Of a stretch of 64,000 nucleotides of DNA, positions 4,910-57,824 are shown piece by piece (position 1 is the first letter of the stretch; every line of letters begins with the position of its first letter). The DNA lies in NCBI RefSeq assembly GCF_006345805.1, contig NW_021834786.1:7647-71646 (forward strand), in the 5' to 3' direction. The stretch comes from Octopus sinensis (Eukaryota). The notes under the pieces are model-generated. The model was not told the origin of the DNA. It saw only the letters and a program-made list of their open reading frames with translations, and made no database searches. Both the position numbers and the translations under genes were made by a program.

Positions 4910-5257
4910 CACCACCGCTCATATCTCTCTGAGACATTTAGAAATTCAATATTTCTAATTTCGGTGACCAGTGAATAGATTTCACTGAAAATATATATAT
5001 TTGCGAAGCCTTGGCAGGCATCTCAACTAGCAGGACTGGCTACCCTGGACTGATGACGAGCAAAGACTCAGAAACATGCATGTCTCTAGGTGCTAGCTCT
5101 AGCTGGTGATGGTGCTTGCCTCCCCTTCGCAAATATAAGGACACAGGAAACGTGTCCCTGTAATTCCCTTTACGGGACTGTCACGTTATGTTGACAGTAT
5201 ACAACCACTCTATCGCTCATGTCTCTTTCAGACATTTAGAAATTCAATATTTCTAAT
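4910..5257 (+). mobile_element. Hammerhead-containing non-coding retroelement (retrozyme/Penelope-pLTR-like), copy 1
   Basis: Terminal direct repeat ctcat.tctct...gacatttagaaattcaatatttctaat ending at 4959 and 5257 (period 298); ends in (AT)n; homologous to 55695-57771. Confidence 0.75.
5044..5090 (+). ncRNA. Type I hammerhead ribozyme
   Basis: CCUGGA-CUGAUGA-c-GAG caaaga CUC-a-GAAAC-AUGCAU-GUC-UCUAGG: stem I, intact core, palindromic stem III/loop, GUC cleavage triplet; extra C/A at the base of stem II. Confidence 0.75.
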
Positions 5258-7859: not shown

Positions 7860-8030
7860 ACTTTCTAAATGCAGTGCTATAGCTTTCCTCTACATCGACT
7901 TCCTGTCCTATCTTTCCCAAACCTCAGAAACGAATTCATTTTTACTTCGTTTTGATGTAGTAAGCCTCTACAGAAATATTCCATATGATTTTGGAATAAA
8001 GACGATTATATACGGGCAGATAGAGAAGTA
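7860..8030 (+). mobile_element. Penelope-like RT fragment
   Basis: DFLSYL..FDVVSLYRNIPYDFGIKTI, matching the PLE RT motif FDV.SLY.NIP. Confidence 0.65.
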
Positions 8031-10706: not shown

Positions 10707-11284
10707 CAGGTATGTGATAAATATATTTATTTATTTCTATTTTTATTTATCTATCTCTATTTCTTATATGCATCATAGGTATGTGCATATATGTCTGCTG
10801 TGTGTTTATTATGTTGTTTGAATCTGTTTTATTTTTTATTAATTTATTTTTCTCTCTCTCTTTTCCTTCCTTCTGTCTTTAGTCGTTATATTGTGTGGTA
10901 TAGTGGTGGGTGTCCGTGCTCTACCAACATGCTCGAGCAGAACATAGAGGTTCGATTAATAGCATAGAGGTTAAGGAATTATCGATGCATAGAACTGACA
11001 CGACACTTAGACAGATCACAGAGGCTACTCACATAACAATAGACAGAAAGAGCCTCAACAGAAGACACGAATAGAAAAATAACATCCACCACAACACCAC
11101 ACAACATGACGACTAAAGACAGAAGGAAGGAGAAATGAGAGGGAAAAATAAATAAGCAAAAATAAAACAGATACAAACGGGGTAACACACACACAATAGA
11201 CATATTTGCACATACCTATGATACACATAAGAAATAGAGATAGATAAATAAAAATGAAAATAAATATATTTATCACATACCTAT
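10707..11284. repeat. Long imperfect inverted repeat (~205 bp arms, ~170 bp spacer)
   Basis: 10707-10913 is the reverse complement of 11082-11284 (e.g. ggtatgtgataaatatatttat / ataaatatatttatcacatacc; ccttctgtctttagtcg / cgactaaagacagaagg). Confidence 0.85.
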
Positions 11285-20833: not shown

Positions 20834-21233
20834 GAAAAATGACAATTTCACATACACATACATTTGTAAACACAGACGTTTGTGACTGGCAAAACTTTCA
20901 CAATACAGAGGATTAAATAACACGATGGCTACAAAAAGTGTGCTGTTCGTGATGATACAAACATGAACTCATTGTGATCTGTACAGCATAGTATGAGCAT
21001 AAAGTGAGTCCTGAATTTAGTTTTCTGGCATATTCTATCCAGGATTAGTTTATCCAAAATATTTACGATAGGTTATTATTTGAAGATTTAGTTACTGGTT
21101 ATATTAGGTCAACGATTGCATAGAGGCATCCTCCTCCTCCTTTTTCATTTATGTTGCTACTGATTTAACAATGTTATGATCATGAAAATGATGTCTCTGA
21201 TGATGATGTCGCTGTGATTTGTTTCTTTTACAG

Positions 21234-21368
21234 ACTTTACTTTTGACATGTCAGATATTGTCAAAATATTTACCAAAGATTGAAGATTTTAGAAAACTAT
21301 GGAACAACAAAGACGAAGGAAAACATCTTCTGAATTCCAATAAACACCAACTTCATGACCGTCCCTGA
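21234..21368 (+). CDS. Gene A terminal coding exon (copy 1)
   Basis: tttcttttacag|, phase 0. TLLLTCQILSKYLPKIEDFRKLWNNKDEGKHLLNSNKHQLHDRP*: end of TM12 plus a cytosolic tail with a DE..HLL dileucine-like motif. Confidence 0.75.
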   Translation, partial: TLLLTCQILSKYLPKIEDFRKLWNNKDEGKHLLNSNKHQLHDRP

Positions 21369-21886
21369 ACGTCAAAAACTAAACAATTTTCCATTGACGT
21401 CGTAGTGGAAATCTACAGCTGCCCACGCAAATTCTTATTGCTTTTATTATTATTAGTTAAAAGGTTGCTGGGCTGGTAAAAGCTGTAAAGCGTTGGGAAA
21501 AATGCCTTGCGTTAATTGTTCCGTTTCTATATATTTTGAGATCAAACACTTCCGAGGTTAACTTTGGCTTTCATTCCTCCGAAGCAAATAAGATAATGTA
21601 CAAATCAAGCTCTGGGTTAGATTAAATTGACAGATCTCTTCCTGTAAATCTTCAGGTTCTTTGCCTATATTAGAAACAATTATTGTTATTGGTTGAAAGG
21701 CAAAGCACAGGACACTAACTTGTGGAATTTGTTCTGTTACTTTACATTCTCATTTCAAATCCTCTCATGGGCAACTTTGCCTTTCATCTCTCTAGGATTA
21801 ATAAAATAAAGTACCAATCAACTGTGTGGTCAATTTAGTAGATTAAACTTTTTTTCCAGAGTTTTGGCTTTGTACCTAATTAAAAA

Positions 21887-22340: not shown

Positions 22341-22740
22341 GAAAAATGACAATTTCACATACACATACATTTGTAAACACAGACGTTTGTGACTGGCAAA
22401 ACTTTCACAATACAGAGGATTAAATAACACGATGGCTACAAAAAGTGTGCTGTTCGTGATGATACAAACATGAACTCATTGTGATCTGTACAGCATAGTA
22501 TGAGCATAAAGTGAGTCCTGAAGTTAGTTTTCTGGCATATTCTATCCAGGATTAGTTTATCCAAAATATTTACGATAGGTTATTATTTGAAGATTTAGTT
22601 ACTGGTTATATTAGGTCAACGATTGCATAGAGGCATCCTCCTCCTCCTTTTTCATTTATGTTGCTACTGATTTAACAATGTTATGATCATGAAAATGATG
22701 TCTCTGATGATGATGTCGCTGTGATTTGTTTCTTTTACAG

Positions 22741-22875
22741 ACTTTACTTTTGACATGTCAGATATTGTCAAAATATTTACCAAAGATTGAAGATTTTAGA
22801 AAACTATGGAACAACAAAGACGAAGGAAAACATCTTCTGAATTCCAATAAACACCAACTTCATGACCGTCCCTGA
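22741..22875 (+). CDS. Gene A terminal coding exon (duplicate copy 2)
   Basis: Same exon and acceptor sequence as 21234-21368. Confidence 0.6.
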   Translation, partial: TLLLTCQILSKYLPKIEDFRKLWNNKDEGKHLLNSNKHQLHDRP

Positions 22876-23393
22876 ACGTCAAAAACTAAACAATTTTCCA
22901 TTGACGTCGTAGTGGAAATCTACAGCTGCCCACGCAAATTCTTATTGCTTTTATTATTATTAGTTAAAAGGTTGCTGGGCTGGTAAAAGCTGTAAAGCGT
23001 TGGGAAAAATGCCTTGCGTTAATTGTTCCGTTTCTATATATTTTGAGATCAAACACTTCCGAGGTTAACTTTGGCTTTCATTCCTCCGAAGCAAATAAGA
23101 TAATGTACAAATCAAGCTCTGGGTTAGATTAAATTGACAGATCTCTTCCTGTAAATCTTCAGGTTCTTTGCCTATATTAGAAACAATTATTGTTATTGGT
23201 TGAAAGGCAAAGCACAGGACACTAACTTGTGGAATTTGTTCTGTTACTTTACATTCTCATTTCAAATCCTCTCATGGGCAACTTTGCCTTTCATCTCTCT
23301 AGGATTAATAAAATAAAGTACCAATCAACTGTGTGGTCAATTTAGTAGATTAAACTTTTTTTCCAGAGTTTTGGCTTTGTACCTAATTAAAAA

Positions 23394-42428: not shown

Positions 42429-42524
42429 GCTAAACTTCGTGGAATAAACAATACTTTAATGAGCTTGCTGTTTGGTGTTTATCCATTCATGAATGTATTG
42501 GCTCCACAAATGGTCAAAAGAATG
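42429..42524 (+). CDS. Gene B (SLC18B1-like MFS transporter) exon, about TM2
   Basis: ttttccttcag| and |gtaagc; 96 nt, phase 0/0. AKLRGINNTLMSLLFGVYPFMNVLAPQMVKRM, comparable with the recalled SLC18B1 AEKKGASNTIIGMIFG. Confidence 0.88.
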
Positions 42525-42629
42525 GTAAGCCAACTGAATTTTCCTTTATACATACATACATACACACACACGCACACACAACACATCTTTGGATCTTACA
42601 ATTACGTATTACTATAGATATATAATTTT

Positions 42630-43630
42630 TTTTTCTGATGAAGTCCGGTTTATGGGGTTACTCTGTGTTTCCCGTCCATAAATGGTTTAAACTTATGGCG
42701 TTTTGTCAGAACCCAAAACCTGAAGAGAAGTTTCAGTAGAAAGGCAGATGTAAACAAGGTGGAGGTTGTATCCCTTTGCTAATGGCTATCGACTTCCGCC
42801 CGTACCGACATCATTCAGCTATAGGGTAAACAATAAGGGATTATCTCTCTCTCTCCCGTTAACTACCAACTTCCGGCTGTGCCGCAACCTTGCGGTTCCC
42901 AAAATGCCAGCAGAAATGTCCTAAAATGCAAACATGGCCCGAAAATCTCAGTTCTGCAGTTTAGTATAGTGCCTGGTTCTCTTTAGTGAATTTTAGGATT
43001 CTCGTGCGTTCGGCTATGCATAGATTCATAGATCGCAGCGTTTTGTACAGTTGATGTAGGGCCCACCAACCTTTTCTTGTAACGTCAGCAAGGGTAGAGG
43101 CAAGGCATGTTTCACCCGATTTGATATATTCAACTTTTATTCGTCTATATCAAAAGCGCTACTGACCAAAACGCTTTCTTTCGCTAGGGACTTCACTAGC
43201 TTTAGTGATAGCGATGTAGAAATTATTATGCATGCCTGGAAGGCAGTACTATTTAACAAAAGTTCAGCATGGGTCAAGTAATCCGACCCCACAGGCTCCT
43301 TTGACGTAGCGATGGGTTGTACATCCTTATGAAAAGTTCCCCTCTGTCCCCTTTGGCCTCTACAGAGATGATGCCCTGACCATCTCTAAGGGAGCAAGCG
43401 GCCATACACTAATTAGATAGGCTTATGAAGGACTTAATCAGCACGCTTGCCGCTATGGGATTGAAGATCACCATAGAAACCAATCTCACCACAGCGTATT
43501 TCTTAGACATCACGCTGGACTTGGGCTCCGGTACTCACAGGCCTTACCGCTAACTAAACGAGAGGCTAACATACATCAACACAGCCTCCTGTCACCCACA
43601 TATCGTGTTTAGGAACCTGGTAAAGGGTTC
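42630..43630 (+). mobile_element. Penelope-like element RT fragment
   Basis: FDIFNFYSSIS, FDVAMG, GLYRDDAL, GLKITIETNL..FLDITLDL, YINTASCHP. Confidence 0.85.
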
Positions 43631-45261
43631 CTGAACACGTTTGAGTACGAAGGTTGATATTTGTCAAGGTTTAGTAATACTGTAATACTTTACTATCATA
43701 AAGCAGTGGAATTTGGCTCATGAGACTGACTTAAACGATAGCAGCAATTGACTTTTACTGTATACCACTTATGTGACCAAAAAAGAAAAAAAAGTCTAAA
43801 TTATCAAACAACAAATCTGTTGCCAAATACTGAATGTATTCATCTTAAGCTGTACTTTTGCAGAAAGCTGGCTGAGATGGCCAGGAGGAAAACTGAAGCA
43901 TATTGAAATCAGCTCTCTTTAGTGGATTTCTGTGAGTACCGAAAAGCAAGAACAATGTCCTCCAGGAAATGGCAAAATTATCACCGAGTGAGACAAAAGT
44001 TATTTATTAACTTCTAAATACTCACACTAACAATAGTCGTCTAATACTAAGTAAAGAGAATCTCGGTTAAGAAAGAGCTAACTCTCATTTTAACTAATAC
44101 AGCTAATACAGTGCTCTTTGTTAAACTAGGAATCAAAAATATACATTGATGGTAAAAGTAGGCCTTGAATTGTTTTCAGTCAATCAATATTTTAAAAGAG
44201 ATTTTGTTTATTTTTGCGCTTAGAACTTGCTTCTACTAGAATCGTAGTTAACAATGTCATGAACGAACAGCTCCATTTGTGTGTGGATGTGTAAGCCGAA
44301 TGTGAGTGTATGTGTGTTTGTGTGTGTGTACGAGAAGAAAAAAAGAGAGTGTGCAAATTTGTTGTGTCAATGTGCACGAGGCGAGAAACAAACAGAAAGC
44401 AGATATGGTGGGCAGTAACATCGGAATACGTTCCAGATATTTCTGAGCCTTAAAGTCCAATCAGAGAATGGTATAACGTTGGAGAGAAAGTCCTGTCGTA
44501 TTTTCCCCATGATCACTCTGAGAGTACTTTGTTTTCAGTGCTTAGTATAAAACCCTAATTTATATATTCTAATAGTCTTTTTCTTTCTTTGAATGTTACT
44601 TTATATCAGAGATTAAATGCGTAATGATATCGATTTTACTTTTTTAAAATAGATCAGACCCATATCAGACACTGTGTGCCGTATGAATTCAAGAGGGGTT
44701 TCTTAAGCAATAGGAGAGGCCAGAAATATTTGTTCTGTCTATGGAAATGAAACTTTAAAATGCATGAACATGCTAACAGTGGTCCGACCAGTTTTGTTCG
44801 GAAAAATGTTTCCTCGTAGATTACTTTCGATCCAAGTGATGAAATGTGGGTTCTCTATAATAATATCCAACGAAAACGACATTGGTTAGCACCCAATGAA
44901 AAAGAAGAGTTTATCCCAGAGTTGCACCTGGAAATGTGCTCTGTGTTTCGAGGGATATGAAGAGCATTGTCTACTATGAAGTGTTAAATCTAAATTAAAG
45001 AGTTAATACTGAGAAGTTTTGTCAATTGGAATCATTGCACAAATATTTTCAGAAAAGTGCCCATCTTTGTCAGTCGTAAAGGGGTATCGTTATTATACTA
45101 CAATGAAAGACCTCATATTATCCAAACCAATCAGGAAAAATTATGACACTAAATATGGAAGTTTTGACTCATACTTCTCACTCTCCTGACATTGCTCCAT
45201 CTGACTATCATCTTTTCAGATCATTGGAATATTATGTAGAGGGAAAACTGTTTATCAATTG

Positions 45262-45748
45262 AATAATCAAGACTTGCAACGTGTACAGCGAGATCTGAAA
45301 CGATTATTCGCATATTTATTCTTAATACGTCTTGGCAGATTCAGCGGCAGAATATGCCGGTCGCTGTACGTCATAAGAGAATAAATATGATCAGCATATT
45401 TTGTGTCTGGATCTTCCCATATTAGTTAAGAATAGGCAAATAATCGTTCCAGATCTTGCTGTATATGGTGCAAATAACGATTTTTTTATCGGTTAGCAAT
45501 CAACACCAATCAGAAAACAATTTGTTCGCTGGAAGTTTAAATGACGCCAGTAGCTTGTAGGCTCAGAATTCTACTTCTGGCTGACGAGACATAACATGTC
45601 GAAACATCAGTGTCCAAGCGCCAAGCGTCGAGTGTATTGAACACACAATTCTCGTAAAAAGGAGTTATTCTATGATGTCCACTTCAGTGACCAACATATT
45701 TTGCGTCTGGATCTTCCTAGATATGTTAAGAATAAATAAGCGAATAAT
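45262..45748 (+). mobile_element. 487 bp non-coding hammerhead retroelement with internal inversion (Penelope-pLTR/retrozyme-like)
   Basis: 13 bp TSD tgtttatcaattg (45249-45261) / tgtttattaattg (45749-45761). Inverted arms 45274-45362 / 45389-45473, with the arm repeated at 45687-45752. Confidence 0.8.
45577..45618 (+). ncRNA. Type I hammerhead ribozyme with canonical core
   Basis: cugg-CUGACGA-GACAU aac AUGUC-GAAACA ucag UGUC-caag: perfect stem II, 3 bp stem III, GUC triplet; stem I is short with one mismatch. Confidence 0.75.
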
Positions 45749-46524
45749 TGTTTATTAATTGCGAAGAAGATAAAAATTATATTGAGTGCTTCTTTGCATT
45801 GAAGCCTGAAGAATTTTACGCCCAAGGGATGAGCAATTTGTCAAATAGATAAGATTATGTAACCAATTCCGAGGGGAAATATTTATTCTCATTAAATATA
45901 TGAATTAAGACCAAAGAAGCAGTTGTTTCTTTCCCATCTTGAAATCGAACTTAGTATCTATTGCTCTAGTTTCTGATAAAAGTGTCGATATGCGTTGGAT
46001 GTATGATACCATGTAAAAAAAGCCTTGTCCTGTTAACTATCATATGTTGTTGGATAATGTCACTGAATACCATATCTTAATGTGTCATAGCAAATTTGAT
46101 AATATATTACATTACACTGAATATCCTGTCATAACAAAATATCACAATCGGCTGAGTGCTAAACCGTACTTGATATCAAAGTTTCGGCTGTTTCACAGCT
46201 ATTTGAATATTTCATCACTTCTTCTTCAATATACATATATATGCATATAACTTAGATGACTTAGATATGGTTCGGCCAAAGATTGGCCCAAGCCATGTCT
46301 AACTTAGTAGCACCACCTGATAGGATTTGTTAGTCATTTTTAAAATCAAGTTAAGAGTTGCTGTTGACTGACAAGTATTCAAGCGTAGGCAGATTATCTG
46401 GTATTCATTGAGAAATTTGTTCAAGTTTCCTCTGAAGGTGATGGGATCTTTTTTAAAATATGTTAACAAATCAACAGGACTCATTCGGAATTGAAACTAA
46501 GTGTTGTCTGTTTATCTCTTACAG

Positions 46525-46598
46525 GTCTATCATTTTGAATTAAAACGTATCATATATGTTGCAATCGGGTTTTCTGCCATTAACACAATTTTTTTTGG
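46525..46598 (+). CDS. Gene B exon, about TM3
   Basis: tctcttacag| and |gtaagt; 74 nt, phase 0/2. VYHFELKRIIYVAIGFSAINTIFF(G), comparable with ..GGVTILFG. Confidence 0.88.
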
Positions 46599-55430: not shown

Positions 55431-55782
55431 TTAGATGCTGTAGGAAGTTACAGGGACGTAAACACACCAACATCAGTTGTCAAGTGATGGTGAGGGGTAA
55501 ACACAGCCACACAAATCCACTCACAAGGCTATGATCAGCCCGAGGCTATAGTAAAAGATATTTTCATATCATAAGGTCCCACGCATGAGTACTGAACCCC
55601 AATCCATGTGGTTAGGAAGCAGGCTTCTTACCACACAGCCACTTCTGCGCCTAATACGATATATGATATGAAATATGATATGATATGATACAAGTAATAT
55701 TTCTAATTTTGGTGATCAGTGAATAGATTTCACTGAAAATATATATGTTTGCGGAGGCTTGGCAAACATCTCAACTAGCAGG

Positions 55783-57482
55783 TCTTGTGTCGTTCAGACG
55801 TTTTTTTTTAAAGTTCGTGCGGTGAAAACGTTATGCTGTTGTAAAAACGGCGTTACACGTTCGGTTCTCTTGGGAAGTCGGAAAAGTCGCTTTGAGTCAT
55901 AAGGATTACTTGTCTTTATTGTTTTTCACTGGAGAATTTAGTCTGTCTGTGTGAGACAGACGAGGGAAAATGAGTTTTTCCGCATTAAGAGGAAGAATGG
56001 AGGAAACAAGAATGTTCAGCGAGTCGGACATGTCGTCTTCCGAAGAAGAATTGGTGGAAGCGGTAGAAATAATGGACATGATACAACAGAAAAGGACATA
56101 CGCAGGTGCAGCGAAGCCGGTGGAAAAAGAAATAAATCTGGCAAAATTACCGGAATGCCAGGACATATTAAAAAGAGTGAATGGAGAGGTGGAGTTGTTG
56201 CTGCCCAACAGGAAAAAAAGTAAAATGGAAAAAAAGAAAATAATATACAGAGTATTAGCAAACGACAAGAACAGCACAGATATAATAAACATGGAAATGA
56301 TAGAGGAGGCCTTAAGAACAACAGAGGAAGAAATAGTATTCCTCGCAAGAGGAAATAAGTATGCCACAGTGGTGGTGCAGTATATAAATGAGGAAACTGC
56401 GGAAGAATGGCTACAAAGACGATAAAAAATGGGAAAATAATACTTCTACCCACTCATCTGGGGAGAAGAACATGAAGAATTAGGGTGGAGGGAATGCCAC
56501 CGAATATCGAAGCAGAATTAGTAATAGCAGCAGTTATCTGCGGTAATGAAGATAAGGTCGACATAGTCCAAGCGACTATAACAGAAGATAAAGGATGGAT
56601 AGGAGCGACGCTGGAAATGGGCGTCCAGGCAGAAATGGAAACCCTACAAAGTTTGTCGGAGTCGATTACGACAAGTGATATAACGATGAAAGTATGTGTG
56701 GAGGGCAGAGCCCCTCGTTGTTATAGATGTGGTCTGAAAGGCCACATAAGAGCAAACTGCAATACGACAGTGGAACAGATAACCAAGGAAACAGCAATGG
56801 AAACGGTAGCACCCCAGAAGGAAACAGAAGAAAAGGAGAGTCGAGTGAAGGAAGACGGAAAAGAGTGGGAAACCCCAGGAAAAAGAAAACAGCGGAAAAG
56901 AAAAAAGGCAAGTAACTGTGAACCCCAACCCACCCCAGCACCACCCTCACCCACTGTGTCCCACCCCGTCCCTGCACACACTAATTCCACCCACTCCCCA
57001 GCAACAAGAAAATAGAAAACAGACAAACAAACGATAGCACAAAACCCCCACTCTGAAAAATATTGTACAGGTATTATTGACAACAAACATTTATATGAAA
57101 GATTGAAAATATGGGGAAAGATAGAAATGCCAGATGGCTGGCATCAGAAAATGGAAATAGTATTGTCAAAAAATCAGGTTGAGGAACTTGAAAAGGAACT
57201 TGAGGATGAATATATGTTAAAAAGAGGAACACTGGCACCGGAAAAGAGGAATAAACTAGAAGAAATATACGAGGTTGAATTTGTAGACTTTGTGGTTTTC
57301 GCGGTAAAATAGGAATAAAAAGGTAAGTGATGTTGACTGATGGAGCAGTTAACATCACTTTCATCTCTCATTATTTGACCTTTTTTCTCATTTTATCATA
57401 CAATGATTTTTTTATGTTTTATGTTCCCAATGTGTTGTAGTGTCCCCTCTATGTAAGACCTTTTATGGTTAATAAAAAATCA
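55783..57482 (+). mobile_element. ORF1-only non-autonomous non-LTR retroposon (HAL1-like/Tx1-derived)
   Basis: Perfect 12 bp TSD TCAACTAGCAGG (55771-55782, 57483-57494); AATAAA and an A-rich 3' end; zinc-knuckle ORF; no RT or endonuclease. Confidence 0.8.
55970..57015 (+). pseudogene. ORF1/gag-like zinc-knuckle protein with one frameshift and one stop
   Basis: ORFs 55970-56425 and 56485-57015 join via ..ATKTIKNGKIILLPTHLGRRT*RIRVEGMPP; CCHC CYRCGLKGHIRANC; basic KRKQRKRKK tail. Confidence 0.75.
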
Positions 57483-57503
57483 TCAACTAGCAGGACTTGC
57501 TAC

Positions 57504-57548
57504 CCTAGACTGGTGACGAGAAGACTCAGAAACATGCATGTCTCTAGG
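57504..57548 (+). ncRNA. Hammerhead ribozyme, core-mutated copy
   Basis: CCUAGA-CUGGUGA-c-GAG aaga CUC-a-GAAAC-AUGCAU-GUC-UCUAGG; perfect stem I, CUGA changed to CUGG. Confidence 0.65.
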
Positions 57549-57763
57549 TGCAGGCCCTAGCTGGTGGGGGTGCTTGTCTCTCCTTCGCAAATATAAGGAC
57601 ACAGGAAATGTGTCAAAGCCGACAGGAAGCGTGGATGCATCCTAGGGCTAAATAGTGGTGGTGTGTTACCCTTTACGGGACTGTCACGTTAAGTTGACAG
57701 TATACAACCACTCTATCGCTCCACCACCGCTCATATCTCTTTGAGATATTTAGAAATTTAATA

Positions 57764-57824
<61 letters not shown>

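Follow-up and report, generated by a model that had tools for sequence, protein, structure and literature searches.

The element at 45249-45761 of the window (the whole stretch of 64,000 nt of Octopus sinensis DNA analysed here) is, with a probability of roughly 0.8, an old and decayed copy of a non-coding hammerhead repeat of ~330 nt that was likely inserted by the reverse transcriptase (RT) and GIY-YIG endonuclease (EN) of a Penelope-like element (PLE), and its ribozyme is predicted to be inactive. The family is new, the class is known and the window copy is dead. The locus alone is of little weight, being a fossil in neutral decay from which no effect on the SLC18B1-like host gene is predicted. 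The family provides an old, independent example of a canonical-hammerhead retrozyme with the full footprint of PLE insertion, and the anatomy of its insertions backs a link between retrozymes and PLEs for which the arguments to date have come mainly from co-occurrence and from similarity to PLE pseudo-LTRs (pLTRs). Our literature search found no octopus retrozymes, and the main text of a repeat annotation of Octopus vulgaris (PMC13282606) mentions neither ribozyme nor retrozyme.

Intronic insertion in an SLC18B1-like gene

The element is located inside the intron 42525-46524 of a gene which, by the names of the matching source proteins, encodes an SLC18B1-like MFS transporter; Pfam and Atlas searches gave no name for the host exons. 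The exons on both sides of the intron are consecutive on the + strand, therefore the forward unit of the element is sense in the intron, as the preliminary description had proposed. The features are as follows (window positions):

42429-42524, + strand: host exon upstream of the intron, AG/GT ends; peptide AKLRGINN...MVKRM in P0002
44720-45945 (approximate), + strand: decayed mariner-type transposase relic, host of the insertion
45249-45261: left target-site duplication (TSD), TGTTTATCAATTG; a 16-bp match starting at 45246 overlaps the element end
45262-45385, - strand: inverted arm, 124 nt, a 5'-truncated copy of the unit 3' end (unit 265 to ~62)
45388-45752, + strand: forward copy, 1.2 units, 365 nt (unit 291 round to 25)
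45388-45448, + strand: terminal redundancy (pLTR-like), first copy
45575-45620, + strand: type I hammerhead remnant, stem I broken by deletions
45581 (C3), 45588-45600 (stem II), 45604-45613 (stem III) and 45614 (C17), + strand: parts of the hammerhead remnant
45688-45752, + strand: terminal redundancy (pLTR-like), second copy, at the 3' end
45749-45761: right TSD, TGTTTATTAATTG; its first bases resemble the element end
46525-46598, + strand: host exon downstream of the intron, AG/GT ends; VYHFELKR... directly after MVKRM in P0001 and P0002

The insert measures 487 bp and is flanked by a 13-bp TSD, identical at 12/13 positions; the mariner frame ...SPDIAPSDYHLFRSLEYYVEGKLFINCEEDKNY... is restored once the insert and one TSD are taken out. 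In 8/8 mariner relatives examined, the 13-mer is single-copy and the sequence continues across the site. The size, TSD and interrupted mariner frame reported earlier are thus confirmed. The relic is presumably of mariner type, as judged from its YSPDLAP-x-D motif; a Pfam search on its fragments returned 0 matches. The insert is not an assembly artefact, since contigs from two other runs cover it end to end: those of run X2 with 0 differences, and those of run X3, from a separate study, with 4 substitutions and 1 gap. Contigs of runs presumed to be RNA contributed no piece at this copy, which says nothing for or against its expression. Two other candidates were set aside: joints that skip ~500 nt derive from other mariner copies, no empty allele of the insertion locus being seen, and a supposed second insertion (L002) is the same locus on contig C9 (99.9% over 3.5 kb). 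The contig of the window (C11257) itself matches a portion of C9 at 22.84 Mb almost exactly (99.9%, 3.5 kb compared) and is probably a redundant haplotig.

Both parts of the insert derive from the same unit. The inverted arm, which shares 84% identity with the family majority across 116 nt, terminates at the 'long' end of the unit (defined below), its tail covering ~45262-45297; the inversion described earlier therefore stands, while its length of ~90 bp has to be corrected to 124 nt. The forward copy terminates at the 'short' end, where its final bases also form the start of the right TSD (TGTT versus CGTT in the element). Because the forward copy overruns the unit junction, it is terminally redundant: the direct repeat 45388-45434 / 45688-45734 is 85% identical over 47 nt at a spacing of 300 and extends to about 45448 / 45752. 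The family unit has 330 nt, and several small deletions in this copy account for the shorter spacing. Of the terminally redundant unit of ~300 nt in the preliminary description, the redundancy is thus retained and the size is not, and the equal unit size that had been noted for the 4910 family (298) is a coincidence. Both families were correctly held to be unrelated in sequence, as blastn detected no similarity between them. The 4910-family hammerhead nevertheless fits model R1 of the present family with 24.9 bits, being of the same subtype with a likewise extended stem I and its UAC bulge.

Several other observations were made in the window and around the host gene. The 4910 family is found at 5020-5121, 55696-55785 and 57483-57784, the two latter being further pieces (91% and 74%). 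The last exon of an SLC18B1-like gene is present twice in the window, at 21207-21749 and 22714-23256, 1507 bp apart, and a cluster of five SLC18B1-like paralogous exons lies at 22.54-22.96 Mb of C9. In the same intron, 1.5 kb upstream of the element, we found a decayed PLE RT relic (~42700-43760, + strand; FDIFNFYSSIS ... YRDD ... FLDITLDL), which we take to be Naiad-like from its motifs; comparing it with the hammerhead family revealed no sequence link. The inverted arm and the forward copy are predicted to pair as an imperfect hairpin of ~90 bp (45274-45473, -93.3 kcal/mol, z = -10.4), a possible ADAR substrate within the intron; octopuses belong to an animal group with heavy RNA editing. 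Matches to miRNA families over the inverted arm are generic hairpin matches, far below the Rfam threshold.

A dispersed repeat family with a canonical hammerhead

The family is dispersed and non-coding. Alignment of its copies gives a unit of 330 nt in circular permutation, with a GC content under 50% and short frames only in the majority sequence. With the element as query, at least 79 matches were obtained at 66-89% identity, its own locus excluded (40 of 312 candidates scored). Further loci came from two more DNA searches and one pattern search, with duplicates removed; 48 loci were used for the analysis of ends and TSDs and 72 for the orientation counts. These copies are the best-scoring matches, so the sample is biased. 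Comparison of 61 long segments with the majority gave identities of 76-88% (mean 82%), and their tree is star-like with weak subfamilies. Transitions at CpG are about twice as frequent as elsewhere in the alignment (0.30-0.33 versus 0.15), which suggests that the copies were methylated in the germ line. A 27-nt core motif has only 4 exact matches in 2.7 Gb; together with the column frequencies, this count leads to a rough estimate of ~550-730 copies covering the ribozyme, and genome-wide it gave no sign of a young subfamily. For comparison, a PLE expansion in Octopus vulgaris has been dated at a JC distance of 0.2 (PMC13282606). Another repeat, with a motif resembling a minimal hammerhead (CUGANGA-stem-GAAACGU), occurs in two of the flanks (L027 at ~904, - strand, and L028 at ~1194, + strand).

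The motif shared by the family is a canonical type I hammerhead, as established on 47 aligned copies (56 matches minus 9 duplicate or partial ones). Stem I pairs UUCUGG with CCAGAA and has a distal extension, stem II pairs GACA with UGUC and carries a short or a long loop, and stem III is palindromic. Copies with a complete core, 6 bp and the extension in stem I, 4 bp in stem II and a short palindrome as stem III resemble Rfam RF00163, and one copy (L053) exceeds its threshold (34.1 bits versus 34). Paired cells make up 79% of the alignment versus 24-44% in slid controls. In the majority sequence, the predicted pair probability is 0.88-1.0 for stem I and near 0 for stem III. The earlier reading had been made to depend on stem I and the core in the consensus, and the majority indeed carries a complete type I hammerhead. 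Taken over all pairs, the covariation signal is weak (score 0.213 versus 0.193, reached by 13/500 shuffles). A C-G/G-C swap in distal stem I, present in 15 versus 11 copies, tracks the subfamily split and is a single event, pointing to selection on the master copies.

By sequence criteria, the family may be placed among the metazoan non-LTR retrozymes as described by Cervera and de la Pena 2020 (PMC7229834) and by Li, Clavereau and Pollet (bioRxiv 10.64898/2026.07.22.740005). Like the retrozymes in these accounts, it has a non-coding unit within 150-450 nt, one canonical type I hammerhead, a GC content under 50%, TSDs of more than 4 bp, monomers and short tandems, and a genome shared with PLEs. 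However, those retrozymes form long young arrays, whereas the present family is old and consists of dispersed insertions of 1-2 units, and the window copy falls outside the definition of 'active' given in bioRxiv 10.64898/2026.07.22.740005, namely two consecutive complete hammerheads.

The unit has two preferred 3' ends. Over 64 segments from 48 loci, 5' ends are scattered, while 3' ends fall at unit 17-34 ('short', 30/64) or at unit 50-66 ('long', 19/64), ~38 nt apart. This end geometry matches that of autonomous PLEs, and an ATG stands just before the short end, as PLE ORF starts do in pLTRs. Since pLTRs and retrozymes are described as related in Xenopus (bioRxiv 10.64898/2026.07.22.740005), the unit could be what is left of an extinct autonomous PLE, either its solo pLTR or a form with the interior deleted, and its copies would be 5'-truncated PLE insertions. 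We consider this unlikely. At 73 loci, copies that continue past the tail (for up to 589 nt and two hammerheads) enter the hammerhead and then the 3' end, never RT or EN sequence, and the hammerhead is the canonical type known from retrozymes (helix I of 6 bp, helix II of 4 bp, UAC in loop 1), whereas most metazoan PLE pLTRs are reported to carry the minimal type (PMC4209133). The unit also differs from PLEs as described in Adineta (PMC3846280), for Naiad/Chlamys (PMC8557442) and for Anolis Poseidon (PMC11167929) in that a search of it found no RT or GIY-YIG ORF, and in that its canonical hammerhead sits in the middle of the unit, upstream of both ends at distances of about 155 and 190 nt. A non-coding retrozyme-like repeat therefore remains our preferred reading of the family.

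The hammerhead remnant in the window

The window copy retains the conserved core in full, with CUGACGA at 45581-87, GAAA at 45601-04 and GUC ending at C17 = 45614: positions C3-A9, G12-A15.1, U16.1 and H17 are intact (11/11 plus C17), and stems II and III pair. Stem I is broken: 4 nt are deleted on its 5' side and ~9-10 nt are gone from its 3' side, which leaves 3 Watson-Crick pairs, 1 G-U pair and 2 mismatches in the proximal part and 0/4 pairs in the distal part. Because of this loss, Rfam Hammerhead_1 scores the copy at 19.2 bits against a threshold of 34; a scan of the whole window at the Rfam gathering threshold gave 0 matches. The predicted pair probability of stem I is 0.00, both alone and in the whole element, and the hammerhead fold is predicted at 16 kcal/mol above the minimum. 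Folding is a blunt predictor of activity, as 6/7 other core-intact copies also lie at 12-22 kcal/mol above their minimum (L059 has the best predicted fold); the deletions are direct evidence. The hammerhead of the preliminary description thus keeps its intact core and is no longer canonical in this copy.

On these grounds the ribozyme of the window copy is predicted to be inactive, and the intron cleavage foreseen earlier is unlikely since stem I has been lost. It is very improbable that the copy is instead an active ribozyme cutting the SLC18B1-like pre-mRNA, perhaps after rescue in trans or by a different stem I. Such a reading may invoke the complete core, intact stems II and III, sense orientation in the pre-mRNA and the 3 Watson-Crick and 1 G-U pairs that can still form in stem I around two mismatches. 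However, the distal stem and the loop 1 contact are gone along with the predicted pairing of stem I, the stem III palindrome has two central mismatches, and a cis dimer is impossible because a single hammerhead is present; even predicted-intact Xenopus dimers are reported to cut in 1/9 cases (bioRxiv 10.64898/2026.07.22.740005). GCUUG at 45553 is not adjacent to C3, and pairing with it to form another stem I was therefore rejected. Moreover, the weight first given to the intact core is not supported: such a core is found in 9/47 copies versus 7.6 expected from chance decay at the observed column frequencies.

Insertion footprint and relation to Penelope-like elements

We counted 21 head-to-head and 0 tail-to-tail arrangements at 72 loci. 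At the 15 head-to-head loci with both ends assignable, 12 combine a short with a long end, 2 are short-short and 1 is long-long; the query of one family search behind this set favoured long ends. TSD-like matches were found at 4/15 head-to-head loci (4.8% in mismatched-flank controls) and at 4/33 single-orientation loci (4.3% in controls), clear TSDs being a minority; they measure 11-15 bp at L013, L019 and L066, and 13 bp in the window copy. Segments longer than one unit are common (29/64), and three loci (L005, L009 and L025) span two hammerhead positions, all decayed, where the window copy holds a single one. Such lengths call for a tandem or circular template. A linear cleaved monomer was rejected as template: the cleavage site is at unit 201, 5' ends do not gather there, and unit 195-210 holds 1/64 of the 5' ends and 1/64 of the 3' ends. 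Ribozyme cleavage is reported to be dispensable for PLE insertion (PMC11167929), therefore the long segments do not prove that the template was circular.

This footprint resembles that described for PLEs. PLE insertions have an inverted 5'-truncated copy, a tail of 30-40 bp often at one end only and TSDs of 8-10 bp (PMC3846280, PMC8557442), and in vitro a PLE protein cuts and extends both strands of AT-rich DNA and begins reverse transcription at two internal positions, one on either side of the tail (PMC11167929). Across these three accounts and the present family, the shared features are a partial tandem (pLTR), an inverted 5'-truncated copy at the 5' end, a 30-40-nt tail at one end only, a TSD of 8-16 bp and an AT-rich target. 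Because the insertion footprint fits PLEs, we infer that PLE machinery mobilised the family, tied to no named element. The earlier proposal that Penelope-type machinery mobilised an independent, retrozyme-like family is thereby supported: the repeat is dispersed and non-coding, the majority carries a complete type I hammerhead, and the insertions show the tail, head-to-head inversion and TSD of PLEs.

LINEs are abundant in the window and LINE machinery also yields TSDs of 10-16 bp and 5' inversions, yet a SINE-like repeat moved by a LINE with L1-style twin priming is scarcely credible and is largely refuted by the end positions and orientation counts: the 3' end has no poly-A or simple repeat, copies exceed one unit, and two fixed ends lie 38 nt apart and the inverted arms are copies of the very 3' end, as in PLEs, whereas twin priming inverts the upstream part with no duplication of the 3' end.

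Insertion by PLE machinery can be pictured as follows. The PLE protein would bind tandem or circular family RNA and cut the two strands of an AT-rich target at positions ~13 nt apart. One cDNA, primed at the 'long' start site, would give the 124-nt arm; a second, primed at the 'short' site, would run past the unit junction and give the 365-nt copy of 1.2 units. The two cDNAs would then be joined head to head, gap filling would create the TSD, the spread of the family would cease, and the window copy would lose stem I through neutral deletion. More tentatively, and with some doubt on our part, the rule of one short and one long end might record the integration itself, a dimeric PLE protein nicking the two strands ~13 nt apart and priming two oppositely directed cDNAs, each from its own start site on circular retrozyme RNA. 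If so, the asymmetry of the tail, the inversion, the TSD and the longer-than-unit copies would all follow from one event, and octopus retrozymes would be a natural test substrate for the mechanism of PLE integration.

We searched the genome for a partner element. At least 147 GIY-YIG matches were found, some in open frames of 780-880 aa. Neither the family unit (as a profile) nor the hammerhead model was detected in 20 GIY-YIG loci (20 of the 147 matches; 5029 candidates), and a PLE protein search found no contiguous PLE coding sequence beside the 73 family loci; one EN fragment lies 420 bp off a family copy at L107. Shared flanks, considered as partner sequence, proved to be common repeats inserted nearby or later. 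A young PLE family with a C-terminal GIY-YIG domain (L037, L038, L047 and many of the GIY-YIG matches) has copies 95-97% identical with frames of ~780 aa; no canonical hammerhead was detected within 1.5 kb of its endonuclease. Its linker carries CxxCxxC, as in Neptune. The window itself contains two short PLE fragments, at 7894-8013 and 10913-11068, from the RT side and the GIY-YIG C-terminal part.
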